Below, piece by piece: positions 2,485 through 39,983 of a stretch of DNA of 64,000 nt. Position 1 is the stretch's first letter, and every line of letters starts with the position of its first letter. The DNA is from Verrucomicrobiia bacterium (GTDB lineage: Bacteria > Verrucomicrobiota > Verrucomicrobiia > Limisphaerales > JADLHS01), in the NCBI GenBank assembly GCA_011525685.1, contig WYBW01000168.1, positions 25,859 through 89,858 on the forward strand, written 5' to 3'. Under the pieces are notes generated by a model that did not search any database, was not told the origin of the DNA, and was given only the letters and a program-made list of their open reading frames with translations. A program made the position numbers and the translations under genes.

Positions 2485-4185
2485 ATGCAACCAAAGTCAT
2501 TCAACATTCTCTCCCGCCGGGCCTTTCTGAGCCAGTCGTTCAAAACCAGCATGGCCATCGCCCTGGCCACGCTCACCGACATTCCCCTGGTCATGAAACG
2601 CGCGCTGGCCGAGGGCAGCATCGGCCTGAACGGCAAGAAAATCCTGTTCATCTGGCTGCGCGGCGCCAACGACGGCCTGAACTCCGTCATCCCCATTCAG
2701 GACTACGCCTACACCGACCCCGGCGTGGCGCTGCGTCCGGGCATCGGAATTCAAAAGGAAGCCTCGGTGGATTACAGCGCGCGCGGGAGTTGCTTCGACC
2801 CCACACAATTCTCTTCGGCCGCGACCATGGCCCCGCGCACGGCATCGGAGAACACCTATAGTTACGACCGTGCCATCCGATTAGGCAATGGCTTTGCCGC
2901 GTTGCACCCCTCGCTCAAGTTTCTCGCCCCGATTTACAACGCCGGCGATCTCGCGTTGATCCATCGGGTGGCCTATCCCCGCCAGTCCCGCTCGCACTTC
3001 GATTCGCAGAACTATTGGGAGAACGGCAACCCCAACAACAACCTTTCCAAGGACGGCATTTTCTACCGCGCGATCATCGAGTCCGGCCTGGCCAACACTT
3101 CGCCGCTGACCGGCATCTCGATTCAGTCCTCCCTGCCGCTCATCTTGCGCGGCTCGGCCGCCGCCATGACGAATCTCACCAGTCCCACGCGCTACGACCT
3201 GCTCGGTGTCCCGACGCCCGCCGGCGACGCCAAGGCCTTCAATTCCATCATCGGCGCGAACTATCATCCGTTCCCGGCCAAGCGCAGCCGCGACCTGCTC
3301 GAACTGCAATACCAGAACATGTCCAACACGCTGCGCATCTTTGCCGACATTGATTTCTCGGATGCCGGCAACACGTTCCGTGACAACGTGAACACTGACG
3401 GCGACAGCGCCCCCTACTATCTGTTCCCGGACAGCAACGCCAAGAACGGCGGCTACGCCTTCAACGGTAACAACGTGAACAAATACGTTGTCCCCACCAG
3501 CCAATACGGCTTCTTCCGCAATCTCAAGGCCGCCGCCATGATCCTGAACAAAACCGATGCCATCATCGCGGGCACGGAGTTCGGCGGTTTCGACACCCAC
3601 CAGAACCAGGGCGGAGCGACCGGCCAGCACGCCAACCTCCAACGCGTGATCGGCTGGTCCATGTACGCCCTGCGCAAGTACTTCACCGCTTACGCGGACA
3701 AAGCCACCTGGGAAAACACCATCGTCGTCACGCTCTCCGAATTCGGTCGCACTTCGCGTGAGAATTCTGACGCGGGCACCGACCACGCCGAAGGGGCCGT
3801 CATGTTCGTGGCAGGCGGCGGCCTCAAAGGCTATGGCAAGGGCAATGCCTATGGGGTTTTCGGTTGCAGCGACGACCCGCTCATCGAGCCGATCCCTTGG
3901 AAAAGCGGACCGCGCACCACCAGCGCCGCCACCTGCGGCACCATGTTTGCCGCCGGCTTTCGCGAAAGCGCCACCACGGTGAACCCGACTTCGGCCGGTT
4001 ACTTGCGGCGTTCCTTTGATTACCGGTCGGTGCTGGGCGAGATCATCCGCAAGCACCTCGGCGCCACGCAAAACCAGTTGAACCGGATCATCCCGGCATA
4101 CGCCAACCCGGCCGAGTGTCTGCTCACGGGCGGGGTTTCGAGCGTTGACGAAGTCCTCATTCGCGGAGAACCCGGCATCCTGTAA
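2485..4185 (+). CDS. DUF1501 domain protein (sulfatase/alkaline-phosphatase-like), Tat signal
   Basis: ATG at 2485 is in frame with ORF 2101..4185 (the upstream part overlaps the previous gene and is unlikely to be translated). N-terminus MQPKSFNILSRRAFLSQS is twin-arginine-like. Hallmark DUF1501 motif TLSEFGRTSRENSDAGTDHAEGAVMFVAGGGLKG present. Confidence 0.85.
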   Translation: MQPKSFNILSRRAFLSQSFKTSMAIALATLTDIPLVMKRALAEGSIGLNGKKILFIWLRGANDGLNSVIPIQDYAYTDPGVALRPGIGIQKEASVDYSARGSCFDPTQFSSAATMAPRTASENTYSYDRAIRLGNGFAALHPSLKFLAPIYNAGDLALIHRVAYPRQSRSHFDSQNYWENGNPNNNLSKDGIFYRAIIESGLANTSPLTGISIQSSLPLILRGSAAAMTNLTSPTRYDLLGVPTPAGDAKAFNSIIGANYHPFPAKRSRDLLELQYQNMSNTLRIFADIDFSDAGNTFRDNVNTDGDSAPYYLFPDSNAKNGGYAFNGNNVNKYVVPTSQYGFFRNLKAAAMILNKTDAIIAGTEFGGFDTHQNQGGATGQHANLQRVIGWSMYALRKYFTAYADKATWENTIVVTLSEFGRTSRENSDAGTDHAEGAVMFVAGGGLKGYGKGNAYGVFGCSDDPLIEPIPWKSGPRTTSAATCGTMFAAGFRESATTVNPTSAGYLRRSFDYRSVLGEIIRKHLGATQNQLNRIIPAYANPAECLLTGGVSSVDEVLIRGEPGIL

Positions 4186-4239
4186 GCCTTGCCAATCTCC
4201 TCCAGAACTGGCCTCGGTGAATCGCCCTGTTTGGGCGGT

Positions 4240-5154
4240 GTGCTCAAAGTCATCTTGCTGGCAATCGGCCTTGGTGCGCTCCGGGCCGTCGCGGCCTCCG
4301 TTACGAACGTCCCTTCAGCCGACACCTCCCTCATCGAGATCGCGCCCACCAACAACAACGGCGCCCAGGCCTGGTTTCTGGCCGGCAAGATCCAGAACGA
4401 CCGTTACAAGAACCGCGCCCTCATCAAGTTCGACTTCACCAATCTGCCCACCAACGCGCTCATTGAGTCGGTCGCGCTCAATGTCGAAGTCACGCGCGTG
4501 CCGGATGAACCGCCAGTGAACTCGACTTTTGGACTGCGCCGGATGTTGCGTCCCTGGGGTGAAGGCTACAAAGCGGCCAATCCTTTTGCCATCCCGCCCG
4601 AGCCGCCGGGCCAGGGCCGTCCGGCGACCGCGGGCGAGGCCACCTGGTTGTGCGCGTTCTTCCCCACCAACGAATGGTCGGCGCCGGGCGGTGCCGAGGG
4701 CGTGGACTTCTCCGCTGTGGAAAGCTCTTTTGAATTTATCGGCGGCCTCGGTCCATACCGCTTCCCCTCCACTCCCGAATTGGTGACCGACGTCCAGGAC
4801 TGGATCCATGATCCCCAGGCCAATCACGGGTGGATGCTGCTCTCCAATGATGAGGTGACGATTCTGACGGCGCGCCGCTTCGCCTCACGCGAAGACCCGG
4901 ACGCGCACCCCACGTTGGAAATTGAATACACGGCTGTCCCGGTCATTGAAACCGCGCGACACGCCGACGACCAGTTCCACCTCACATTCACCGCCTGGCC
5001 GGGCCAGACCTGTGCGGTCGAATACCGCGACTCGCTTACCTTGGGTTCATGGCAAATTCTGACCAACTTGGAGACCGCGACAGTCCCGACGCGATACTCG
5101 ATCGCAGATCCGGCCGTGAACCCACAGCGATTCTACCGCGTTGTCAGTTTCTGA
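4240..5154 (+). CDS. Secreted hypothetical protein with DNRLRE-like domain and conserved RFYRVV C-terminal domain
   Basis: GTG at 4240 gives signal peptide VLKVILLAIGLGALRAVAAS (the ORF-track TTG at 4189 is less likely). Central region RALIKFDFTNLP..ALIESVALNVEV..LRPWGEG resembles the DNRLRE domain pattern. Last about 65 aa (..HLTFTAWPGQTCAVEYRDSLTLGSWQILTNL...PQRFYRVVSF) match the C-terminal domain shared with three other proteins in this window. Confidence 0.65.
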   Translation: MLKVILLAIGLGALRAVAASVTNVPSADTSLIEIAPTNNNGAQAWFLAGKIQNDRYKNRALIKFDFTNLPTNALIESVALNVEVTRVPDEPPVNSTFGLRRMLRPWGEGYKAANPFAIPPEPPGQGRPATAGEATWLCAFFPTNEWSAPGGAEGVDFSAVESSFEFIGGLGPYRFPSTPELVTDVQDWIHDPQANHGWMLLSNDEVTILTARRFASREDPDAHPTLEIEYTAVPVIETARHADDQFHLTFTAWPGQTCAVEYRDSLTLGSWQILTNLETATVPTRYSIADPAVNPQRFYRVVSF

Positions 5155-11727: not shown

Positions 11728-12445
11728 AGCCGACAAAACCCTCGCTCCCCCCGCCGCCGCGGGCGATTCTTCGGCAGCGGGCCCATCCGCCCCGCGAAAG
11801 CGCGTGTTCATCGTGGATGACCACACCATGTTTCGCGAAGGTCTGCGGCAGTTGATTGACCGGGAACCGGGATTGACCGTTTGCGGCGACGCCGCGGATG
11901 CGATCGAGGCCTTGCCCGCGATCCGCCAAACCCGCCCCGACGTCGTGCTGGTGGACATTTCTCTGGCTGGCGCCAGCGGGATTGATCTCATCAAAGACCT
12001 CAAGCAGGAGTTCGAGGATTTGCCCGTGCTGGTGGTTTCGATGCACGACGAGTCGCTCTACGCCGAACGGGCGTTGCGCGCCGGTGCCATGGGCTATGTC
12101 ATGAAACACGAACCGGCCAAGACTGTGAAAGCGGCCATCCACAAAGTGCTGGCCGGGGAAATGTATCTGAGCGACAAAATGTCCGGCAGTGTCCTCAAAA
12201 AGCTGTGGCTTGGCCAGCCGGAGCAGCCCAAGTCGCCCATCGCCCTGTTGAGTGATCGGGAACTGGAAGTCTTCCGGCTCTTGGGACAGGGGCACGGGGT
12301 GCGGCTGATTGCCGAGAAGCTCGACGTCACCATCCCCACCGTTAATTCCTTCCGCAATCGTATCAAGGAGAAGCTCGGCCTGAAGTCCTCCACCGAGGTC
12401 ATGCTCCATGCCATCCAATGGTTTCGGGATGAATCCTCGAAGTAA
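11720..12445 (+). CDS. Response regulator, NarL/FixJ family (REC + LuxR-type HTH)
   Basis: ATG at 11720 overlaps the kinase stop (ATGCCTGA). REC domain RVFIVDDHTMFREGL...DVVLVDISLAGASGIDL. LuxR HTH LSDRELEVFRLLGQGHGVRLIAEKLDVTIPTVNSFRNRIKEKLG. Confidence 0.9.
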   Translation: MPEADKTLAPPAAAGDSSAAGPSAPRKRVFIVDDHTMFREGLRQLIDREPGLTVCGDAADAIEALPAIRQTRPDVVLVDISLAGASGIDLIKDLKQEFEDLPVLVVSMHDESLYAERALRAGAMGYVMKHEPAKTVKAAIHKVLAGEMYLSDKMSGSVLKKLWLGQPEQPKSPIALLSDRELEVFRLLGQGHGVRLIAEKLDVTIPTVNSFRNRIKEKLGLKSSTEVMLHAIQWFRDESSK

Positions 12446-12495
12446 TTCGCGCGCGGGCTGACCCTTTGATTGGGCTCTCAACGTATCGCCTGTCG

Positions 12496-12610
12496 GTAAC
12501 GCCGACTTCCCAGTCGGCTCTGGCGGCGGAGTGTCCAGCCGAGAGCTCGCAGCGCCAATCACAAGTCTTACTCCGAGGAGTGACTGTGCCGGTTGGAAAT
12601 CCGGCGCTAC
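12496..12610. repeat. Structured palindromic intergenic repeat, copy C (core GTAACGCCGACTTCCCAGTCGGC...GCCGGTTGGAAATCCGGCGCTAC with about 64-nt insertion carrying its own hairpin)
   Basis: Outer 9-bp stem GTAACGCCG/CGGCGNTAC, internal hairpins GCCGAC-N6-GTCGGC and CCGGTT-GGAA-AACCGG (GNRA loop). Related to the copies at 13721..13771 and 14008..14068. Lies 50 bp downstream of the response-regulator stop. Confidence 0.6.
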
Positions 12611-12743
12611 AGGTGGCAATCAACTCGTTCCGCCGGTGCGGCTCAAAGTCGAAGATCGAAACCACCCAAGTCTCCTGAGCATTTTAGCGAGCCGCGCACG
12701 ATGAGGATTTTCAATCATAAGGCTCTCGGCTGAAAAAGTTCTT

Positions 12744-12779
12744 TGACAAGGCGCGCAGGTGTGTAGTAGAAGCTATTAC
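12744..12779 (+). promoter_or_regulatory. Candidate promoter/operator TTGACA-N13-GTAGTAGAAGCTATTAC upstream of the PEP-CTERM gene
   Basis: Same spacing and near-identical 17-bp imperfect palindrome (in inverted orientation) as upstream of the paralogous gene at 5406/5451. Confidence 0.4.
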
Positions 12780-12847
12780 ATCAAAGGCTGCGAGCTGGGT
12801 AAGGCTTGCCGTCGCAACCGGATAATACCGAACAACCATTGGCGATT

Positions 12848-13540
12848 ATGAAAACATTGCTCAAGAGCTACGCGGTTACATTGGTTACACTTTTCGTTCT
12901 TCTGGCTGCCAGAAACACGAGCCATTCCCAAGTTCAAGTGACCGTTGATCCCGGGGCGACTTGGCTGGGCTACATGAATGTCTTCGAACTCCCGATCAAC
13001 GGCGGAGGCTTTGTGTTTGGCAGCCCGTGGGGCACAGCGGATTTGGTCGCCACTTTCTCGGGAAGCACGCTTACACTGTCGCCAAACACCATCGGCGACC
13101 CTGATCCTTTCTGGTATATTGGCGGAGGCGGACCTGGCGCGCAGGGCAACAAGATCATGGAAGCCAACATGTACATCGAGAACACAGGCGGCTTGAACGG
13201 TCAGAATGTCACCTTCTCCGGCTTGGTTTCGGCCAACACTTTGGTCAGCCCGTACACCTCAATTGCGTTCATCAAGGACTTTGCGCCGGACTATTCCTCG
13301 TTCAACGTGATCACCGCCCCGCTGGTTGAAGGCGCATTCAGCATCAACCTGGATACGCTGGCCGACCCGACCCGCCATGTGCAGTACGGATTTACGACGG
13401 TCGGGCCCAATGTGTGGATTACGGACGTCGGTCCCTTGGGTGCGGTGCAGATCACGGCCATCCCCGAGCCTTCGATCCTGGCTTTGCTCGCGGTCGGTGT
13501 CGCCGGACTGCTGGTCCTGCGGCGCCAGCGCCGCGCCTGA
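12848..13540 (+). CDS. PEP-CTERM sorting domain protein (paralog of the N-terminal domain of the 5406..7223 protein)
   Basis: ATG 12848 gives MKTLLKSYAVTLVTLFVLLAA signal. C-terminus ..ITAIPEPSILALLAVGVAGLLVLRRQRRA is a canonical PEP-CTERM tag (PEP motif, TM helix, basic tail). N-terminal domain aligns with the 5406 protein. Confidence 0.85.
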   Translation: MKTLLKSYAVTLVTLFVLLAARNTSHSQVQVTVDPGATWLGYMNVFELPINGGGFVFGSPWGTADLVATFSGSTLTLSPNTIGDPDPFWYIGGGGPGAQGNKIMEANMYIENTGGLNGQNVTFSGLVSANTLVSPYTSIAFIKDFAPDYSSFNVITAPLVEGAFSINLDTLADPTRHVQYGFTTVGPNVWITDVGPLGAVQITAIPEPSILALLAVGVAGLLVLRRQRRA

Positions 13541-13662
13541 ACCTTCTGCGATCCGGGAGGTCGGGTTTGCCTGCGGCTTATCCATCTCGAAATGCTGGGC
13601 ATGGATTGGGGCGCTGACACTGAAATGCCCTCTGCCGTCCATCCAAGGCTCGCCAAGATTAG

Positions 13663-13771
13663 TCAGCCTTGAACCCCCGGGCGGTCAGTCCGCAAAGCTC
13701 CCTTCTGCTCGCCGCCCACCGTAACGCCGACTTTCCAGTCGGCGACTGGCCGGTTGGAAAACCGGCGTTAC
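13663..13771. repeat. Structured palindromic intergenic repeat, copy A (about 109 bp; 3' 51 nt = GTAACGCCGACTTTCCAGTCGGCGACTGGCCGGTTGGAAAACCGGCGTTAC)
   Basis: About 95% identical over about 110 bp to copy B at 13957..14068. Perfect outer stem GTAACGCCG/CGGCGTTAC, inner hairpins GCCGAC-TTTCCA-GTCGGC and CCGGTT-GGAA-AACCGG. Confidence 0.7.
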
Positions 13772-13956
13772 TTTGCGACCCGGTTGACCACCTCGGGTGC
13801 AATTGAAAGTGACGGTCCATTTGCGTGGTGGCAGTGCTCGCGCTGCGAGCACTCCGCCCGCGCAGAGCGGGCGGAACGTCGCCGTCAGGGTTGCGCCGCC
13901 GCACGCGGCAACACGGCTCGCAGCGCAAGCCGTCCCACCCCAGAGACCGCCACGTT

Positions 13957-14068
13957 CAGTCCGCCTTGAACTCCCGGACCGTCAGTCGCCACAGCTCCCG
14001 TCTGCTCGCCGCCCACTGTAACGCCGACTTTCCAGTCGGCGACTGGCCGGTTGGAAAACCGGCGTTAC
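13957..14068. repeat. Structured palindromic intergenic repeat, copy B
   Basis: Direct repeat of copy A, same orientation, about 285 bp away; located downstream of the hemC 3' end on the other strand. Confidence 0.7.
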
Positions 14069-14237
14069 CCTCGTGACCCGGTGGGCAGTCTCACCAACAT
14101 CTGCGACTCCGTAGCCCGGCTGACCGGCACTTGGTTCGAGAAGAACGACCACCCGACGCACATCCGACACGAATGCGCAGAGTTTCGCGAGGTGCCCGCC
14201 ACTTTCGCATCCGTCAGCGAGGTGAATCGCTCACCCG

Positions 14238-33102: not shown

Positions 33103-33386
33103 TAGCGTGGACGTTTCGCGAAGCAGTCTGTCGCCCCTCCGGGGCTTGTGGTGCCGCCGACTAACCCACGGCTCAGGCCGTGGGCTACTGGCTGCCGCTG
33201 CTCCGCAGCTATCCGCGTGGGGAGAAACCAGCGCAAACCCGAAACGGATCGAAACATTCGAGCGTGTGACCTGAGGGGCGACACAGGCGCGGAGCGCCGT
33301 CAGAGAGTAGCCCACGGCGCAAGCCGTGGGTTTGAATCGAAAACGAATCAAGCCCCGTAGGGGTGAAAGAAAAGAGCGGAAACAAT
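33103..33386. repeat. REPIN-like palindromic element (left of RAYT): G-rich hairpin, REP(-) ... REP(+), G-rich hairpin
   Basis: REP hairpins at about 33164..33188 (AACCCACGGCTCAGGCCGTGGGCTAC) and about 33307..33332 (GTAGCCCACGGCGCAAGCCGTGGGTT) in inverted orientation. Terminal GCCCCTCCGGGGC / CCCCGTAGGGG hairpins. Both ends are reverse-complement related to the ends of the right-hand element. Confidence 0.7.
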
Positions 33387-33387
33387 C

Positions 33388-33840
33388 ATGGCCCACACCT
33401 ACACGAGTCTGTTGAGCCATATCATTTTCAGCACGAAGGACCGCGTGCCAATGTTGGATGCGGAGCTGAAGACTCGGCTGTTTCCCTATATGGGCGGCAT
33501 TATCCGTGAACTCGGCGGTGCCGGGCTGTCGATCAACGGGCCGACCGATCATGTCCACTTGCTCGCCTCGTTGCCTGCCACGATTGCGCTTTCTGATTTT
33601 GTGGGGAAGGTGAAGGCCAATTCATCTGGCTGGGTTCACAAAACATTTCCCAACCAACGCGAATTCAAGTGGCAGGTCGGTTACGGCGCATTCAGCGTCA
33701 GTGTTTCCCAGCGCGACAAGGTGCTGACTTACATTGCCGATCAGGAGGAACACCATCGCAAGGTATCGTTTAAGGAAGAGTTCATGGGCTTTCTCAAGAA
33801 ACACGGGATCGCCTACGACGAGCGTTACGTTTTTGATTGA
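33388..33840 (+). CDS. REP-associated tyrosine transposase (RAYT; IS200/IS605-like Y1 HUH transposase)
   Basis: 150 aa; HUH motif GPTDHVHLLASLP, C-terminal catalytic-Tyr helix VLTYIADQEEHH, RAYT-typical size. Flanked on both sides by GTAG-initiated REP palindromes. Confidence 0.85.
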   Translation: MAHTYTSLLSHIIFSTKDRVPMLDAELKTRLFPYMGGIIRELGGAGLSINGPTDHVHLLASLPATIALSDFVGKVKANSSGWVHKTFPNQREFKWQVGYGAFSVSVSQRDKVLTYIADQEEHHRKVSFKEEFMGFLKKHGIAYDERYVFD

Positions 33841-33844
33841 TGAA

Positions 33845-34150
33845 TGGTTGTTTGAACATTTGCGGAAATGGTCTTTCGCCCCTACGGGGCTTGTTCCGTC
33901 GCGGCACGAAACCCACGGCTGACGCCGTGGGCTACTCTCTAACGGCGCTCCGCGCCTATGAAACTGCTTCCGCCACTCCCATTGTATCGAGAAGGAGTTT
34001 GCCAGGAACTTGTTCGTTCTGTGCCCCACAACGGCGGGGACTTGTCCGTGTAGCTGCGAAGCAGCGCCAGAGGGTAGCCCACGGCTTACGCCGAGGGTAT
34101 GACGCGACCACATGCCACAAGCCCCGGAGGGGCGAAAGAACACCCCGGCG
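33845..34150. repeat. REPIN-like palindromic element (right of RAYT)
   Basis: REP hairpins at about 33909..33934 (AACCCACGGCTGACGCCGTGGGCTAC) and about 34076..34100 (GTAGCCCACGGCTTACGCCGAGGGTA, degenerate); terminal GCCCCTACGGGGC and GCCCCGGAGGGGC hairpins. Confidence 0.7.
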
Positions 34151-34187: not shown

Positions 34188-37100
34188 ATGCCCGACGCCC
34201 CCGAACCAAAACCCGCTCCGCCGCCCGAAGGCGCACCGACTGCCGCGCCCGAAACCACTGCGCCCTCGACCGCGCAGGCGCTGGGCAGCGCAACGTATGA
34301 AATCATCCGCCAGCGGCTGAACACGCAGGGCGCGGCGTTGCGGGAACGCATGGCCAAGCTCGACGCCCGCCGCGCGGAGGTGTTCGGGACGATTGAGTAC
34401 AAGCTGCTCCAGGCCGACCGCATCGTCACGTCACACAACTGCGTCCCGCGCGACATGGTTCAGCTTGGGCACGGACGATTTCTGTTCGGTTTCAACGTCC
34501 AGTTTGGGCTGAAGAAGGAAATGGAACTGGCGGATGTGTTCGCGGTTTATCGGCGCGACGAGGAAGCGGGGACGTTCAAGGAGGACACGCTCGACGTTCT
34601 CAACGACAAACAATTCCTCATAGACTTCAAGCGCCTCTACAACGTCTATGAGAAAACCGCGTTCCGGAAATTCGCGGTCATTGACGGCAAGCTTTACATG
34701 AAGTTCGCCACCGGCGCGGGGCTGAATGATTTCGCCGTGTTCAAGTGGGCGTTCAACGAAGGCAACCTGAAGTTCGTGGATGGTCGAGCCGAAGCCGAGT
34801 ACCGCCGCATCGCCTATCCGCCCGCGCATCAGTTTCGCTGGCAGACACCGGATCGCGAATCCTATCGCTACGGCGATCATCCGCATGTGTCCATCGAGGA
34901 CCGCGTGTTCGTGGAGTGCGTCGGCGGCGATCTTACGATCAAGGTCGAGGACAACACCAAGACCGGCGAGGGCGTTTATTCCGAGCCGGTGGATGACAAA
35001 TACCAAAAGGTGGACGATGCCGAGATCGCCTACGGCCTGGTCGGGCATTTGATCCTGCTGAAAATCCGGCCTTACAAGGAGCAGGCCGCGCGCTATTTCA
35101 TTTTCAACGAGAAGCAGCAAACGGCGGTGCGGGTGGATTCCCTCGGGTACTCGTGCGTCATGTTGCCTGAGGAGCACGGGTTGATTTTCCCGGACGGCTA
35201 CTATCTCGCGACCGGCGAACTCAAGCAGTTTGACTGCGACGCCACAAACATGGTCATCGAACGCGTCGTTCATGCGCCGAATGGCGAGGATGTGCTCTAC
35301 GTGTTTTACAACCGGCTGACGGGTGATTACGCGCTGCTGCCGTATCGCCTCATCGCGCAAAAGGTCGAGGAGCGCATCAGTTGCAACGGTTTCTCGCTGT
35401 TCCCGAACGGTCATCTCCTCTTGTTCCGCGCCGAGGCCGAGCCGCAGAAGCATCACATGATTCAACTGCGGCAGACGCCGTTCCATCAGCCCGGTTCCGA
35501 GCCCGCCGGCCAGAAGGATGCGTTCCTGTATCAAGTCGGGAACAAGGAAGTCGTGCGCTGTCTCGCCGAGTGCAACGAGGTGATGACGCTCGTGCGGAAG
35601 GAAAATCCCTACGCGGAAATCTACACCGACCTCGTCAAACGTTGCGGCGCGATTCTTGATTCGTATCCGTGGCTGTCGAGTGCGGATGGTTTCGGCGTGG
35701 ACGCGGCCTTGCGCGCCGTGCGCGAGGCGGCGGACAAGGCGGTGGATGAATACGACAAGGTGCGCCGGCTGCAACGCGAGGCGGTCGAGCGCGTGAAGGA
35801 CATTCGGAAGCGTTGCACCGAGCAATTCCAGAACATCCGTCGCGCGAGCTTCCGCGTGCTGAATGATTTCGTGGTGAACCTCGCCACCTTGCGCAAGTTG
35901 CGCGGCGAACTCATCACGCTCAAGGAAGTCCGCTACGTGGACGTGGCGCAGGTTGAGGAGTTGGAGAAGCAGGTTGCGACGCAGACCGACGAACTTTCCA
36001 ACTCGTGTGTGAAGTTTCTGCTCAAGCCCGAGGCGCTGGAACCGTATCGCCGGCAGGCCACCGATCATCTTGCGGCGGTGGATCGAGTGACCAAGGTCGC
36101 CGAGGGAAAAGAAATCGAGAAGGCCGTGACCGTGGCCGGCGGCGAACTCGAAATGCTCATCGAGATCGTCAACAGCCTGAAGATCGAGGACGCCACTGAG
36201 ACGACGCGCATCATTGACGGCATCACGGCGGTTTATTCCACGCTGAATCAGGTCAAGGCCGCGCTCAAGAAGCGCCTGCAAAGCCTCGTCGCCAGCGAAG
36301 GCGCGGCGCAGTTTGCCGCGCAGATGAAGCTGTTGAGCCAGGCGGCTTCGAGTTATCTCGACCTCTGCGATTCGCCGGCCAAGTGTGAAGAGTATTTGAA
36401 TCGCCTCTCCGTTCAACTGGAGGAACTGGAGGGCACATTCGCCGATTTCGAGGAATACACCGTTCAACTCGCCGAGCGGCGCACCGAACTTTACGAGGCG
36501 TTCGAGCAGCGCAAGGTTGCGCTCGTCGAGCAACGGAATCGCAAAGCCTCAGCGCTGATGACCGCTGCCGAGCGCATTCTCAAGGTGATTCAGAATCGTC
36601 TCGCCGGGTTCAAGTCCATCGAGGACATCAACAGTTACATGGCGTCGGACCTGATGATCGCCAAGGTTCGCGAGACGATTGAGCAACTGCTCGCGCTTGG
36701 CGATTCGGTGAAGGCCGACGACTTGCAGGGCCGGCTCAAGAGCGTGCAGCAGGACGCGGTGCGGCAGTTGAAGGATCGGCAGGAATTGTTTGTCGGCGGC
36801 GAGAACGTCATCAAGCTCGGCAAGCATCAGTTCAACATCAACACGCAGCCGCTCGACCTGACAGTCGTGAATCGCGACGGGGTGCAGCACATCCACCTGA
36901 CGAGCACAAAGTATTTCGAGGCGATCACGGATGAAGCCTTCCTCGCCACGCGGGATGTGTGGGATCAGGAAGTGGTTTCGGAGAATCGCGAGGTTTATCG
37001 CGCCGAATATCTCGCGTGGCAGATGTTGAAGGCGATCGAAAATAGGAGCGCGGGCTTTAGCCCGCTTCAACGTGGCAATGGCGGAGCCCTTGGAAATCCT

Positions 37101-39983
37101 GATGAGTCCCAGCCAGTGCGGGAGGTGAAGCGGGCTGAAGGCCGCGCTCCGAGTCTGGCGGCAGCCCTTGCGTTTTCAGACGACCAACGCCTCGGCTTCG
37201 TGCAGGAGTTCATGGGCGCGCGGTACCAGGAAGGCTACGCCAAGGGCCTTCATGACCAGGACGCCGCGAAGATTTTCCACGCGCTGCTCACCACGCATCA
37301 CGCGCTGCAACTCGCGCGCTTCAGTCCGATGGCGCGGGCCGGCGCCGTGGTTTACTGGAATCGCTTTTGTCCGGCGGAAACGAAGACGCTCTGGACGGCC
37401 AAGCTCAACGGCTTTGCCGAGCGCAACAAGCTTTTCCCCGGCGATCCAACGCAACAAGACTACATCGCCGCGCTGCAAGCGTTGGTGCGCGCGTTCGTCG
37501 AGGAAGCGAAGCTCTACCCGCCCGAGATCGCCAATGAAGCGGGCGAGTACCTGTTCAACGAACTCATCACCAGCGAAACGGTCTCCGTCAGCCAGGAAGC
37601 CGATCAATTGGCGAACGCGTTCAGCCGTCATCTCGCGAGCAAAGGCAGTGAGAAGACCTTTGAACAACGCCGCCAGGCACTGGTCGAGCATCCCGGCAGC
37701 GAACTCGACTTGGTGCGCGATTGGGTGAGGGGATTTCTCCTTACACAGGTGGATCCGGTCGCGCTGCGACCGGATGTCGAGTCGCAGCGCGACTCGACCC
37801 ACCAGTTCCGCTATCTCGATGAAGTCGCCGCCATTTTGTTCTGCGGCGCGGCGCTCAAGCGCTCCGTCGTCAAAGCCGCCACCTCGCGGGTGATCGAATG
37901 CATGAAGGGCAGTCACGCGCTGATTCAGGGCAGCAAGTATCACTTTGATTACCTGAACTTTCAGGAACGGCTGCAACGCTTCGAGCGCGAGGTTGTGCCG
38001 CGTTTCGAGAAGTTCCACGCGCTCAAGCAGGAGTTGATTGAGCGCGAGCGCGCCAAGCTGCGGCTGGAGGAATTCAAGCCCAAGGTGCTGACGTCCTTCG
38101 TGCGCAACCAGCTCATTGACCAGGTTTATCTTCCGCTCATCGGCGACAATCTCGCCAAGCAGATTGGCGCGGCGGGCGCGGCCAAGCGCACGGACCTGAT
38201 GGGATTGCTGCTCGTGATTTCGCCGCCCGGTTACGGCAAGACCACCCTGATGGAATACATCGCCAGCCGGCTGGGACTCGTCTTCATCAAAATCAACGGC
38301 CCGGCCCTCGGGCACAATGTCGTGTCGCTCGATCCCGAGGAAGCGCCAAACGCCGCCGCACGCGAGGAAATCATCAAGCTGAACCTCGCGCTGGAGATGG
38401 GCGACAACGCGATGATCTGCGTGGACGACATCCAGCATTGCAACCCGGAGTTCCTGCAGAAGTTCATCTCGCTCTGCGACGCCCAACGGAAGATCGAGGG
38501 CGTCTGGCGCGGGAAGCCGCGCACTTATGATCTGCGCGGTCGCAAGGTCGTGGTGGTGATGGCGGGCAATCCTTACACCGAAAGCGGACAGAAATTCAAA
38601 ATCCCGGACATGCTCGCCAACCGCGCCGACACCTACAACCTCGGCGACATCATCGGTGGCAGCGCGGATTATTTCAAGGCGAGCTATCTCGAAAACGCCG
38701 TCACTTCCAACGCTGTGCTCGCACCGCTGGCGAACAAGAGCCAGAAGGACATCTGCTCGTTCATCCGCATGGCGGAATCCGGCGAGCGCGAGGCCGAGGG
38801 GTTCGAGGGGAGTTACTCCTCGCAGGAGGTGGAGGAAATCCTCTCCGTGATGAAAAAACTCGTGATGATTCGCGAAGTCGTGCTGCGCGTGAATCAGGAA
38901 TACATCTACTCCGCCGCGCAGGCGGACGAGTTCCGCGTCGAACCGCCGTTCCGCTTGCAAGGATCGTATCGCAACATGAACCGCTTGGCGGAAAAGGTCG
39001 TCGCCATCATGAACGACGACGAAGTGCGCGGACTCATCGTGGACCATTATCGCGGTGAGTCGCAGACATTGACGACCGGCGCGGAGGCGAACCTGCTCAA
39101 ATTCAAGGAACTCATCGGCGAATTGACGGCGGAGGAGAAAGCGCGCTGGGAGGACATCAAGCAGACGTTCAAGCGCAACAACGCCGCACGTGGTGCCGGC
39201 GGCGAGAACGACCCCGCCGGGCGCATCGTGGCGCAGTTGAGCGGGTTTCAGTCGGGCTTGGAAGGAATCCAGAAGGTCATCTCAGACCAGTTGGCCAAAC
39301 CACCTCCGCCACCTCCACAGGTCAACGTGGACATGACTCCGGTGGGCCGCAGTCTGGAAGCCCTGCAAACCGCTCTGGAGAAACAAGCGGCAAAGGCCCC
39401 GCCTGCGCCGCAAGTCGTGGTGGACCTGACCCCGGTAGGCAAAGGGCTGGAAGCATTGCAGGCGGCGCTGGAGAAGCAGTCCACGAGGTCGCAACCTGCC
39501 GCGCTGCCCGTGACGATTGATCTCACGCCGCTCGCCGCGAACCTCGAGGCGTTGCGCAACACCGTTGACCAGCGCCTCGCACAACCGGCCAGGAAAGAGG
39601 ACAAGGGCAATGGCGATTTCAACGTGCTCGCCGCCAAGCTGGGCGAAGGACTGAACGCACTGCGGGAGGACTTGAGCCGGGCGATTTCGGTGGTTCACAC
39701 CGGCACGATGGCCGACGCGATGAAGCGGATGGAGCACGAGATGGAGATGGTCCACAGCACGCTGGCAACATTGAAAGACATGGCCGCGCGGCAGCGCGAT
39801 CATTTGCGCGCCTCGCAGGAACTGCTGGAAACCCGCGCGAAGCAGGGCGCGGTGGAGATTGACGTGACGCAGGAGATGTTGACCAACGAAGCGGCGTTCC
39901 TCGAACACTTCCACAAAGTCATTGCCGAGGCGCAAAAGCAGCGCGAGTCCAAGGAAGGCGAACCACCGTCAAAGAATCAATGA
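34188..39983 (+). CDS. Giant (1931 aa) coiled-coil protein with a single MoxR/AAA_5-type ATPase module and C-terminal tandem repeats; function unknown
   Basis: Continuous ORF with coherent domain content. Walker A LLLVISPPGYGKTTLMEY (nt about 38229). Walker B/MoxR box NAMICVDDIQHCNPEFLQKFISLCD. Sensor region VVVVMAGNPYTESGQKFKIPDMLANRADTYNL matching the MoxR pattern hhhATxNP.E..G...LPEA.LDRF. Long predicted coiled coils between residues about 520-900. Three about 36-aa repeats at the C-terminus (..VDMTPVGRSLEALQTALEKQ.. / ..VDLTPVGKGLEALQAALEKQ.. / ..IDLTPLAANLEALRNTVDQR..). Reverse ORFs 34431..36533 and 37176..39047 are shadows. Confidence 0.85.
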   Translation: MPDAPEPKPAPPPEGAPTAAPETTAPSTAQALGSATYEIIRQRLNTQGAALRERMAKLDARRAEVFGTIEYKLLQADRIVTSHNCVPRDMVQLGHGRFLFGFNVQFGLKKEMELADVFAVYRRDEEAGTFKEDTLDVLNDKQFLIDFKRLYNVYEKTAFRKFAVIDGKLYMKFATGAGLNDFAVFKWAFNEGNLKFVDGRAEAEYRRIAYPPAHQFRWQTPDRESYRYGDHPHVSIEDRVFVECVGGDLTIKVEDNTKTGEGVYSEPVDDKYQKVDDAEIAYGLVGHLILLKIRPYKEQAARYFIFNEKQQTAVRVDSLGYSCVMLPEEHGLIFPDGYYLATGELKQFDCDATNMVIERVVHAPNGEDVLYVFYNRLTGDYALLPYRLIAQKVEERISCNGFSLFPNGHLLLFRAEAEPQKHHMIQLRQTPFHQPGSEPAGQKDAFLYQVGNKEVVRCLAECNEVMTLVRKENPYAEIYTDLVKRCGAILDSYPWLSSADGFGVDAALRAVREAADKAVDEYDKVRRLQREAVERVKDIRKRCTEQFQNIRRASFRVLNDFVVNLATLRKLRGELITLKEVRYVDVAQVEELEKQVATQTDELSNSCVKFLLKPEALEPYRRQATDHLAAVDRVTKVAEGKEIEKAVTVAGGELEMLIEIVNSLKIEDATETTRIIDGITAVYSTLNQVKAALKKRLQSLVASEGAAQFAAQMKLLSQAASSYLDLCDSPAKCEEYLNRLSVQLEELEGTFADFEEYTVQLAERRTELYEAFEQRKVALVEQRNRKASALMTAAERILKVIQNRLAGFKSIEDINSYMASDLMIAKVRETIEQLLALGDSVKADDLQGRLKSVQQDAVRQLKDRQELFVGGENVIKLGKHQFNINTQPLDLTVVNRDGVQHIHLTSTKYFEAITDEAFLATRDVWDQEVVSENREVYRAEYLAWQMLKAIENRSAGFSPLQRGNGGALGNPDESQPVREVKRAEGRAPSLAAALAFSDDQRLGFVQEFMGARYQEGYAKGLHDQDAAKIFHALLTTHHALQLARFSPMARAGAVVYWNRFCPAETKTLWTAKLNGFAERNKLFPGDPTQQDYIAALQALVRAFVEEAKLYPPEIANEAGEYLFNELITSETVSVSQEADQLANAFSRHLASKGSEKTFEQRRQALVEHPGSELDLVRDWVRGFLLTQVDPVALRPDVESQRDSTHQFRYLDEVAAILFCGAALKRSVVKAATSRVIECMKGSHALIQGSKYHFDYLNFQERLQRFEREVVPRFEKFHALKQELIERERAKLRLEEFKPKVLTSFVRNQLIDQVYLPLIGDNLAKQIGAAGAAKRTDLMGLLLVISPPGYGKTTLMEYIASRLGLVFIKINGPALGHNVVSLDPEEAPNAAAREEIIKLNLALEMGDNAMICVDDIQHCNPEFLQKFISLCDAQRKIEGVWRGKPRTYDLRGRKVVVVMAGNPYTESGQKFKIPDMLANRADTYNLGDIIGGSADYFKASYLENAVTSNAVLAPLANKSQKDICSFIRMAESGEREAEGFEGSYSSQEVEEILSVMKKLVMIREVVLRVNQEYIYSAAQADEFRVEPPFRLQGSYRNMNRLAEKVVAIMNDDEVRGLIVDHYRGESQTLTTGAEANLLKFKELIGELTAEEKARWEDIKQTFKRNNAARGAGGENDPAGRIVAQLSGFQSGLEGIQKVISDQLAKPPPPPPQVNVDMTPVGRSLEALQTALEKQAAKAPPAPQVVVDLTPVGKGLEALQAALEKQSTRSQPAALPVTIDLTPLAANLEALRNTVDQRLAQPARKEDKGNGDFNVLAAKLGEGLNALREDLSRAISVVHTGTMADAMKRMEHEMEMVHSTLATLKDMAARQRDHLRASQELLETRAKQGAVEIDVTQEMLTNEAAFLEHFHKVIAEAQKQRESKEGEPPSKNQ

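Follow-up and report, generated by a model that had tools for sequence, protein, structure and literature searches.

Inverted hairpin doublets in a Verrucomicrobiia contig as probable members of a GTAG-type REP family with a cognate RAYT outside the window

In the 64-kb window (the whole stretch of DNA analysed), a 23-nt unit is present six times, arranged as three inverted doublets: copy C at 12496-12610, copy A at 13721-13771 and copy B at 14018-14068 (Table 1). All three fall inside 1.6 kb, two of them in one local duplication, and sit between Pfam-confirmed genes. Copy C lies 51 nt past the stop codon of a response regulator gene (PF00072 and GerE), the core of copy A 181 nt past a PEP-CTERM gene and that of copy B 170 nt past hemC, in agreement with the initial annotation, which had placed the copies downstream of these genes. 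Its description of three structured copies within 1.6 kb was equally borne out. Covariance model R1, run on the window with filters off, returned exactly six strong units (36-39 bits) and one diverged pair at 37045/37130, and each 23-nt half gave three window matches at ≤3 mismatches compared with 0 in 100 shuffles. Several spurious ORFs of 45-89 aa cross the hairpins.

Table 1 Positions of the hairpin units and associated features in the window
Feature	Position	Strand	Description
Copy C left REP unit	12496..12518	+	GTAAC head and GCCGACT/TCCC/AGTCGGC hairpin; R1 37.7 bits, E = 5e-8
Copy C spacer between inverted units	12519..12587	.	69 nt; own small hairpin
Copy C right REP unit	12588..12610	-	GTAGCGCCGGATTTCCAACCGGC on - strand; R1 36.2 bits
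Copy A duplicated flank, upstream of doublet	13634..13720	.	gapped alignment to 13929-14017
Copy A left REP unit	13721..13743	+	GTAACGCCGACTTTCCAGTCGGC, AC/GT stem variant; R1 39.1 bits
Copy A right REP unit	13749..13771	-	GTAACGCCGGTTTTCCAACCGGC on - strand, GT/AC stem variant; R1 38.6 bits
Copy B duplicated flank	13929..14017	.	81% identical to copy A flank
Copy B left REP unit	14018..14040	+	same sequence as copy A left unit; R1 39.1 bits
Copy B right REP unit	14046..14068	-	same sequence as copy A right unit; R1 38.6 bits
Tentative diverged head-to-head doublet, related variant	37045..37150	.	GGAGCGCGGGCTTTAGCCCGC ... GCGGGCTGAAGGCCGCGCTCC; R1 23.5 bits (E = 4e-4) and 13 bits

Copies A and B share an identical 51-nt core, GTAACGCCGACTTTCCAGTCGGCGACTGGCCGGTTGGAAAACCGGCGTTAC (51/51 positions), next to duplicated flanks that agree at 81/100. 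A gapped alignment of 13634-13784 with 13929-14082 has 132/151 identical columns and the ungapped identity is 90% over 121 nt, so that the repeat reported earlier stands, but is longer and less similar than the roughly 95% over about 110 bp first given. Upstream of about 13709 the shared flank (70-87 nt) had no match among the 104 related loci listed, and was therefore treated as a local duplication outside the element. A local duplication of some 150 bp, placed between the convergent genes for the PEP-CTERM protein and hemC, either gave rise to copies A and B or encloses them. In copy C the two halves (one mismatch in the left, two in the right) are 69 nt apart rather than 5 nt as in A and B, which upholds the view that this copy keeps both ends around a 64-nt insertion with a hairpin of its own. 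Part of its spacer (12538-12555) is 89% complementary to 13840-13857. The right unit of copy C has one A:A stem mismatch and the sole GTAG head in the window, the other 5/6 units being headed by GTAA. The tentative diverged doublet falls within a 1931-aa ORF (34188-39983); GGAGCGCGGGC... variants like those that it carries were also seen in related loci.

Among five Logan contigs with hemC, three stop at one same base, 77 nt beyond the gene, and the other two stop earlier; repeats of this kind may break short-read assemblies.

Anatomy and folding of the unit

Each unit begins with a 5-nt head, GTA(A/G)C; next to it stands a G+C-rich hairpin whose 7-bp stem is perfect and whose loop is TTCC. 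In a doublet two units are inverted with their heads outward and differ in their stems (GCCGAC/GTCGGC and GCCGGT/ACCGGC). At minimum energy the doublet folds into a single long hairpin (-32.6 kcal/mol and z = -7.1 for RNA), and either strand does so, whether treated as RNA or as DNA. A 5-bp stem with two hairpins reaches -26.3 kcal/mol and the two hairpins alone -24.8 kcal/mol. The initial annotation had proposed a 9-bp stem enclosing two hairpins, together with an attenuator-like alternative fold. Neither is supported, since the 9-bp stem and the inner hairpins compete for four bases per side and are mutually exclusive, and the long hairpin is favoured by 6 kcal/mol.

The covariation analysis that had been suggested at the outset showed strict Watson-Crick pairing. 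Among 137 exact pattern matches there are three main stem variants, and the free stem positions (two per side) are Watson-Crick paired in 263/274 cases with one G:T. When units were picked by hand and aligned, 98% of cells paired, compared with 82% in shuffles. By the evidence of these alignments, the unit hairpin is under selection, and its near-pure Watson-Crick covariation is as expected of DNA or of a both-strand palindrome. Conservation is higher in the loop, TTTCCA, than in the stem. With a search pattern that admitted only A or G at the fourth head position, the same 137 matches had GTAG heads in 89 cases and GTAA heads in 48 (35%).

These properties bear on the proposal that the core acts as a structured RNA, either a small RNA or a cis-regulatory one, for example an attenuator-like switch between alternative folds. 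The strong predicted structure (z about -7), the GNRA loop (GGAA) on one strand of every unit and the stem covariation would all suit such a role, and a neighbouring REP family, Acido-Lenti-1, is filed as an sRNA in Rfam. Nevertheless, the Rfam scan that had been recommended gave no match at the locus (best E-value 1.1), G:U pairs are almost absent, the units occur in either orientation relative to genes and in all kinds of gap, and the three-way fold contradicts itself. A promoter-like site was looked for near the copies and none was found. We therefore regard an RNA of this kind as very improbable.

A family dispersed in Verrucomicrobiota and Acidobacteriota

Further copies, a search for which the initial annotation had called for, were abundant. 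A pattern scan over species-representative genomes yielded at least 104 stretches with units, mostly from Verrucomicrobiota MAGs and some from Acidobacteriota. Among the matches listed, the MAG JACRJZ01 has units on 18 contigs, the Pedosphaera MAG JANOAY01 on 14 and CALNYA01 on 8, and JAHCLO01 has six stretches on five contigs. Doublets 87-92% identical to the window core were found in other genomes, JAHCLO01 among them. The 104 listed stretches hold 214 units at ≤2 mismatches, of which 73 are isolated; the dimers are head-to-head in 35 cases, tail-to-tail in 13 and tandem in 42. Heterodimers make up 31/35 of the head-to-head and 13/13 of the tail-to-tail pairs in these stretches, and the window doublets are heterodimers likewise. 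Head-to-head spacers measure 5-6 nt or up to 98 nt, 20-98 nt being common in the family, and arrays have a period of 68-100 nt and up to 11 units. CRISPR was considered for these regular arrays and rejected, because the sequence between the units is repeated too.

The longest stop-to-stop ORF across each unit is powerless in G+C-rich DNA, and a self-trained codon-usage gene finder, itself crude, was used instead. By this measure only 18 of the 214 units (8%) overlap predicted genes, though 83% of the DNA was called coding. Some copies are intragenic and in frame. The gene context and orientation of the units in the listed loci match the background with no bias.

A rival reading takes the hairpins to be primarily transcription terminators, or stabilisers or insulators of mRNA 3' ends, selected downstream of genes. 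All three window copies lie 51-181 nt 3' of stop codons, the median distance in related listed loci is 57 nt to a gene 3' end compared with 136 nt to a 5' end, and the fold is very stable on either strand; termination and mRNA stabilisation are also among the roles hypothesised for REPs by Di Nocera et al. (PMC3733652). However, copies B and C have no T-run, and there was one weak terminator match in 2.1 kb (right unit of copy A, tail GTTACTTTGC) where 2.4 were expected from shuffles. Unit clusters occur in 16 divergent and 18 convergent gaps, in proportion to the background, and single units are unbiased in orientation (18 versus 12). Nor would a terminator account for the conservation of the GTA(A/G)C head, for the arrays, for copies lying in frame within genes or for the tight RAYT association. 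Terminator as the primary identity, one of the options first raised, is therefore unlikely; a very stable hairpin, when transcribed, may still affect mRNA 3' ends.

The copies could also be MITEs of a classical DDE insertion sequence, or a mere local segmental duplication with no wider family. A and B do lie within a local duplication, and the termini of their doublets are inverted repeats (GTAACGCCG...CGGCGTTAC). Yet the family is spread over many contigs and genomes, none of the three copies is flanked by a target-site duplication or direct repeat, and the conserved module is the unit, found single, in tandem and in arrays, and not the doublet. When the ORFs of the 104 listed loci were clustered, the only recurrent neighbours were ORFs running through the repeats and generic families, RAYT-flanked loci excepted, and the enzyme that does accompany the units is a Y1/HUH RAYT. 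Of the explanations weighed here we consider this one the least credible.

Association with a RAYT clade

The units flank the genes of an NF047646-type RAYT clade on both sides in 13/13 loci examined, representing about ten distinct genes. In one of them (L079), the ORF at 3711-4418 scores 94.6 bits on NCBIfam NF047646 'REP-associated tyrosine transposase' (cutoff 80), and among PDB entries it matches 4ER8 (E. coli TnpA-REP) best. Its H149, H151 and Y210 align with H59, H61 and Y115 of TnpA-REP, that is, with the HUH histidines and the catalytic tyrosine. This gene is bracketed by units and is itself interrupted, in frame, by a unit dimer. A homologue in an acidobacterial MAG (L051; 41% identical) is likewise bracketed. 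Contigs were fetched for nine further homologues, and in 9/9 there are 1-14 units inside the gene or within 400 nt, with a unit farther away in only one locus. GTAA-headed units are abundant directly beside RAYT genes of the clade. The RAYT adjoins a Peptidase_S8 gene in L079 and in four other loci (L202-L205), and JAHCLO01 has a REPtron as well as dispersed doublets.

No homologue of this RAYT was found in the 64-kb window (tblastn, E < 0.01). The window does encode a different RAYT at 33388-33837, which is flanked by Acido-Lenti-1-type hairpins and not by the 23-nt units. Searched against the 104 listed unit-bearing loci by tblastn, it had no match, and at 80 metagenome loci of its type the 23-nt units occurred in none and Acido-Lenti-1-type hairpins were present instead. 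On these two grounds it was rejected as the partner of the 23-nt units. Equally, Rfam reported nothing at the three copies at gathering thresholds or E ≤ 10, Acido-Lenti-1 (RF01687) included, and RF01687 had no match in seven RAYT-clade loci carrying the 23-nt units.

The two families nevertheless resemble each other. Acido-Lenti-1 is present in the same window (33165-34097), its hairpin followed by GCTAC reads as GTAGC plus hairpin on the opposite strand, and it flanks a Y1 transposase; in contrast to the 23-nt units it has its own stem, CCCACGGC, and a variable loop, and it goes with a different, IS200-like RAYT clade of 150 aa. By this likeness, the Rfam entry Acido-Lenti-1 may be a REP family as well.

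Since the units flank another RAYT clade and the window RAYT has other hairpins, the units are best assigned to a RAYT absent from the window. We conclude, with a probability of about 0.88, that the three copies are head-to-head heterodimer doublets, REPIN-like, of a GTAG-type REP family whose cognate RAYT lies outside the window. The observations behind this are direct ones: the repeat and its covariation, its dispersal and extragenic siting, the dimer architecture and the physical association with RAYT genes in related genomes. The elements are palindromic stem-loops in the 20-40 bp range, extragenic, and occur as singles, dimers and clusters, with dispersed copies and a REPtron in related genomes; as in a REPIN, two inverted REPs form one long hairpin. 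Of the suggestions made at the outset, a MITE-like element or the cognate REP of a different RAYT is the one that these findings favour. Whether the doublet or the single unit is the replicating entity can be argued both ways, as the A and B cores are identical throughout yet about a third of the listed units (73/214) are isolated. Going by its relatives, the source genome probably carries the cognate RAYT gene elsewhere and may hold units in high copy number.

By analogy with E. coli TnpA-REP, the cognate HUH/Y1 RAYT of the NF047646 clade would bind a unit through its head and hairpin and would cleave and transfer it. The 23-nt units would then be non-autonomous DNA elements that form hairpins when single-stranded, and the cutting and rejoining of single strands by the RAYT may let them spread and persist in intergenic DNA. 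Neither empty sites nor polymorphism came to light. A more speculative and rather doubtful extension is a host-integrated system in Verrucomicrobiota, in which the heterodimeric doublets would act between genes as 3'-end hairpins or insulators that work in both directions and need no factor, and a syntenic RAYT passed on vertically would keep them uniform. The complete identity of the A and B cores inside 81% flanks, the kept loop with covarying stems, the design common to Verrucomicrobiota and Acidobacteriota and the tolerance of in-frame copies in proteins, the RAYT included, are all compatible with it.

These results tie a REP family to a cognate RAYT clade in two phyla in which such systems have been little studied, and the units offer defined substrates for the study of RAYT specificity (GTAG versus GTAA heads, three stem variants). 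Settling what the hairpins are also helps to keep annotators from taking them for sRNAs, riboswitch-like elements or small ORFs.

Comparison with known REP systems

A literature search for the unit sequence found no paper, and this REP family does not appear to have been described in Verrucomicrobia, the families GTAG-17 and GTAG-19 being compared here by description and not by consensus sequence. Those two come from the verrucomicrobium Opitutus terrae and form part of the superfamily of GTAG-tagged REPs (Di Nocera, De Gregorio & Rocco 2013; BMC Genomics 14:522, PMC3733652). That paper describes REPs with the same dimer types, in which heterodimers are preferred, units are 1-5 or 20-100 bp apart, some copies are intragenic and REPtrons occur. 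Our units agree in being short stem-loops with a tetranucleotide tag at one end, in occurring alone, as head-to-head, tail-to-tail or tandem pairs and in clusters, with heterodimers preferred and spacers of the same two size classes, in being mainly intergenic with some in-frame intragenic copies, and in flanking, even overlapping, RAYT genes. They differ from what is described there in the fourth head base, where A accounts for 35% of the units matched and for 5/6 in the window, and in a TTTCCA loop that outdoes the stem in conservation.

E. coli REP/BIME elements and TnpA-REP were reportedly the subject of work by Ton-Hoang et al. in 2012. There too the unit is a head plus a hairpin, two inverted unit types alternate (Y and Z in E. 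coli, AC/GT and GT/AC stems here) and the REPtron layout is the same; the hairpins, however, are perfect over 7 bp here, whereas E. coli REPs have stem mismatches (PMC3479197). TnpA-REP, the structure of which (PDB 4ER8) is from Messing et al. 2012, neither binds nor cleaves once any base of GTAG is altered (PMC3479197). TnpA-REP is the closest solved relative of the RAYT described here, with the HUH motif and catalytic tyrosine aligned, although sequence similarity is weak (E = 3e-6 across roughly 100 residues), the equivalent of H123 is alanine, and our clade is known from sequence alone.

With the Pseudomonas REPIN-RAYT systems (Bertels & Rainey 2011, PMC3116915; Bertels et al. 2017, PMC5581495), the differences lie in the heterodimers found here and in spacers that are either very short (5-6 nt) or variable. 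The likeness is in the architecture: a pair of inverted REPs folds into a single long hairpin, which behaves as the repeated module there and may do so here, and the RAYT keeps a conserved chromosomal position, here beside a Peptidase_S8 gene.

Structured repeats in the window

The three structured intergenic repeats in the window (copies A, B and C) are REP doublets, and their sequence agrees with the initial annotation, which had described two near-identical copies, A and B, and a copy C split by an insertion. Each half of the core has three matches in the 64 kb at ≤3 mismatches and none in 100 shuffles. In a gapped alignment, the repeat shared by A and B is identical in 132 of 151 columns, comprising 51/51 in the core and 81/100 in the flanks; at this flank divergence the chance of an unchanged 51-nt core is ~0.81^51, or ~2e-5. 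No relatives of the common flank were found outside the window by comparison with the related loci. The neighbouring genes, namely a response regulator (PF00072 plus GerE), a PEP-CTERM protein and hemC, were confirmed through Pfam as originally assigned.

The core consists of two inverted 23-nt units, each made up of a GTAAC head and, after it, a hairpin without mismatches (left unit, plus strand, GCCGACT-TTCC-AGTCGGC; right unit, as read on the minus strand, GCCGGTT-TTCC-AACCGGC). As plus-strand RNA, the minimum-energy fold is one long hairpin (-32.6 kcal/mol, z = -7.1), followed by a 5-bp closing stem with two hairpins (-26.3 kcal/mol) and the two unit hairpins only (-24.8 kcal/mol). The folds rank alike when the minus strand or DNA parameters are used. 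The 9-bp closing stem proposed initially shares bases with the two inner hairpins, so they are mutually exclusive.

Spurious ORFs of 55-89 aa run through the doublets, with unit-derived peptides in common (VTPVFQPASRRLESRRY, NAGFPTG..PTGKSALR), and gene callers could label them hypothetical proteins. Three of five Logan contigs carrying the window's hemC (L105-L109) end at one base, 77 nt past the hemC stop, and the remaining two end 48 and 67 nt past it, all before copy B. These ends suggest that the assembly graph branches in the REP-bearing region, through either strain polymorphism or repeat collapse.

Coordinates of repeat units, genes and associated features
Feature	Locus	Position	Remark
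Copy A core	window	13721-13771	GTAACGCCGACTTTCCAGTCGGCGACTGGCCGGTTGGAAAACCGGCGTTAC, 51 nt, identical to B core
Copy B core	window	14018-14068	GTAACGCCGACTTTCCAGTCGGCGACTGGCCGGTTGGAAAACCGGCGTTAC, 51 nt, identical to A core
Copy C left half	window	12496-12518	
Copy C right half	window	12588-12610	
A/B repeat, copy A	window	13634-13784	
A/B repeat, copy B	window	13929-14082	
Second palindromic repeat	window	13825-13873	between A and B
Inverted part of palindrome	window	12538-12555	copy C spacer
Spurious ORF	window	13659-13928	minus strand
Spurious ORF	window	13685-13852	minus strand
Spurious ORF	window	13982-14170	minus strand
Spurious ORF	window	12399-12665	minus strand
Shared end of hemC contigs	window	~14161	
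Y1 transposase	window	33388-33837	PF01797, 150 aa
Four Acido-Lenti-1 matches	window	33165-34097	RF01687
1931-aa ORF	window	34188-39983	DUF3686/AAA_5-like
Diverged doublet	window	37045-37150	within 1931-aa ORF
In-frame dimer in RAYT	L079	4164-4209	
In-frame dimer in RAYT	L194	1254-1299	
In-frame dimer in RAYT	L195	1731-1777	
In-frame dimer in RAYT	L205	2734-2779	
In-frame dimer in RAYT	L206	563-608	
Tandem array	L052	2572-3194	
Tandem array	L066	2234-2655	
Tandem array	L101	484-1305	
Tandem array	L006	1598-1974	
Tandem array	L097	238-482	
Group II intron RNA domain	L205	3317-3393	
Group II intron RNA domain	L051	1-84	

A dispersed family of covarying hairpins

The pattern GTARCGCCGNNTTYCCANNCGGC was run over species-representative genomes and matched at least 104 stretches, the majority in Verrucomicrobiota MAGs and some in Acidobacteriota. 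Among the matches listed, JACRJZ01 contributed 18 contigs, Pedosphaera sp. JANOAY01 14, CALNYA01 8 and JAHCLO01 6 stretches on 5 contigs; lone matches in unrelated taxa fit chance, with ~17 chance matches expected over the whole collection by our own estimate. The loci listed (at least 104) hold 214 units at ≤2 mismatches. In the 137 exact matches among them, 263 of the 274 pairs formed by the two free stem positions per side are Watson-Crick and one is G:T, the main stem variants being GC/GC (54), AC/GT (34) and GT/AC (33). The stem covariation, which the initial annotation had proposed to analyse, is genuine. A set of 53 hand-selected units was 98% paired compared with 82% in shuffles; because hand selection favours pairing, the 137 exact matches provide the unbiased test. 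Their heads (GTAGC 89, GTAAC 48) and loops (TTTCCA 121, TTCCCA 16) are the only ones that the pattern allowed.

Because it is near-exclusively Watson-Crick, this covariation points to a hairpin that would work at the DNA level or on both strands, rather than as RNA alone. It thus speaks against a small RNA or attenuator, as had been suggested for the core, and so do the lack of strand bias, the absence of a promoter-like site near the copies and an Rfam scan, called for initially, which gave no match at the locus.

Using a crude self-trained codon-usage gene finder, which called 83% of the related loci coding, only 18 of the 214 units in loci among the matches listed overlapped predicted genes. 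Unit clusters in these loci occupy co-directional, convergent and divergent gaps 53, 18 and 16 times (all-gap background 310:96:87), and no orientation bias of single units was observed there (18 vs 12). The proposal that the doublets are primarily transcription terminators is not borne out, since units occur just as readily in gaps on the promoter side, and 2.1 kb contained only one weak terminator-like site, a lower number than shuffled sequence gave.

Among the matches listed, dimers were head-to-head with heads outward (35, including 31 heterodimers; spacers of 5-6 nt in 9/35, others up to 98 nt), tail-to-tail (13, all heterodimers) or tandem (42), and 73 units were isolated. Given these dimer types and spacer ranges, A and B, with halves 5 nt apart, and C, with 69 nt, are typical head-to-head heterodimers. 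A MITE of the DDE type would fit poorly: the three copies show no target-site duplication and, RAYT apart, no recurrent transposase lies beside units in loci among the matches listed. In other Verrucomicrobiota genomes the units also form regular tandem arrays (6-11 copies, period 68-100 nt). These are clusters of REPs, not CRISPR arrays, since the DNA between the units repeats as well.

A second palindromic repeat, GTGCTCGC-GCT-GCGAGCAC then TCCGCCCGC-GCAGA-GCGGGCGGA, matches the Pedosphaera MAG loci L002 (96% over 49 nt) and L070. The intergenic regions combine repeats of several kinds in a BIME-like mosaic. The 1931-aa ORF contains a head-to-head doublet of a related but diverged variant (GGAGCGCGGGCTTTAGCCCGC ... 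GCGGGCTGAAGGCCGCGCTCC), which may be a REP inserted in frame within the gene.

The cognate RAYT clade and the RAYT of the window

In JAHCLO01, a 235-aa ORF (locus L079) lies between clusters of units of the A/B/C type, and besides this REPtron the MAG has dispersed doublets with 87-92% identity to the core in the window. Against NCBIfam NF047646 ('REP-associated tyrosine transposase', cutoff 80) the ORF reaches 94.6 bits, and against PF01797 31 bits. [quoted passage not shown] A homologue in an acidobacterial MAG (L051), 41% identical, is bracketed by GTAGCGCCGGCCTCCCGGCCGGC units. The clade numbers 5976 proteins at E ≤ 1e-8, many named RayT by JGI.

In nine further homologues with contigs, the units inside the gene or at most 400 nt from it number 14, 12, 8, 7, 4, 1, 4, 8 and 9, and they lie on both sides in all but L200/L201 (one diverged unit); only in L202 does a unit lie beyond 400 nt. 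The TAA of the GTAAC head is the RAYT stop codon in several loci. RAYT lengths vary from 213 to 287 aa because their own REP dimers interrupt the genes in frame, in L079 yielding the peptide PVGKPALRNADFPVG; unit-derived hexapeptides occur in 9/120 homologues of this clade and 0/120 window-type RAYTs. What these data show is a family of dispersed, extragenic hairpins with covarying stems and a physical link to a single RAYT clade. In L079 and L202-L205 the RAYT gene has a Peptidase_S8 gene as its neighbour, so its place on the chromosome may be conserved. Two RAYT loci have group II intron RNA domains (RF00029, RF02005) near their clusters of REPs.

E. coli TnpA-REP binds folded REP via the 5' GTAG and hairpin, and it both cuts single strands and transfers them (PMC3479197). 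By analogy, the cognate-clade RAYT may recognise head and hairpin in single-stranded DNA, and could disperse or maintain the units.

No homologue of this RAYT was found in the 64-kb window, and no unit of the A/B/C type in 80 metagenome loci of the window-type RAYT clade (L114-L193). The option raised initially, that the repeats are the REP of a different RAYT, was right. The 80 loci carry GTAGCCCAYRGY-type hairpins instead: in 36 of them a strict regex finds GTAGCCCAYRGY-loop-RCYRTGGG (opposite strand) beside the RAYT, and Acido-Lenti-1 reached the Rfam gathering threshold in 8 of 11 window-type RAYT loci tested. Rfam files Acido-Lenti-1 as an sRNA gene; because its four matches in the window flank the window's own RAYT, the 150-aa Y1 transposase, and the motif also flanks homologues of that enzyme, Acido-Lenti-1 seems to be this clade's REP and not an sRNA.

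Relation to known REP elements

As far as its described features go, the GTAG-tagged REP superfamily (Di Nocera et al. 2013, PMC3733652) shares with the present family its dimer types, a preference for heterodimers, the classes of spacer, in-frame intragenic copies and REPtrons, and the verrucomicrobium Opitutus terrae is described there as rich in GTAG repeats. The window units match it at the level of these features. A search of full texts found no paper with the unit sequence. Given both results, the element is ordinary in kind, a further member of a known REP type.
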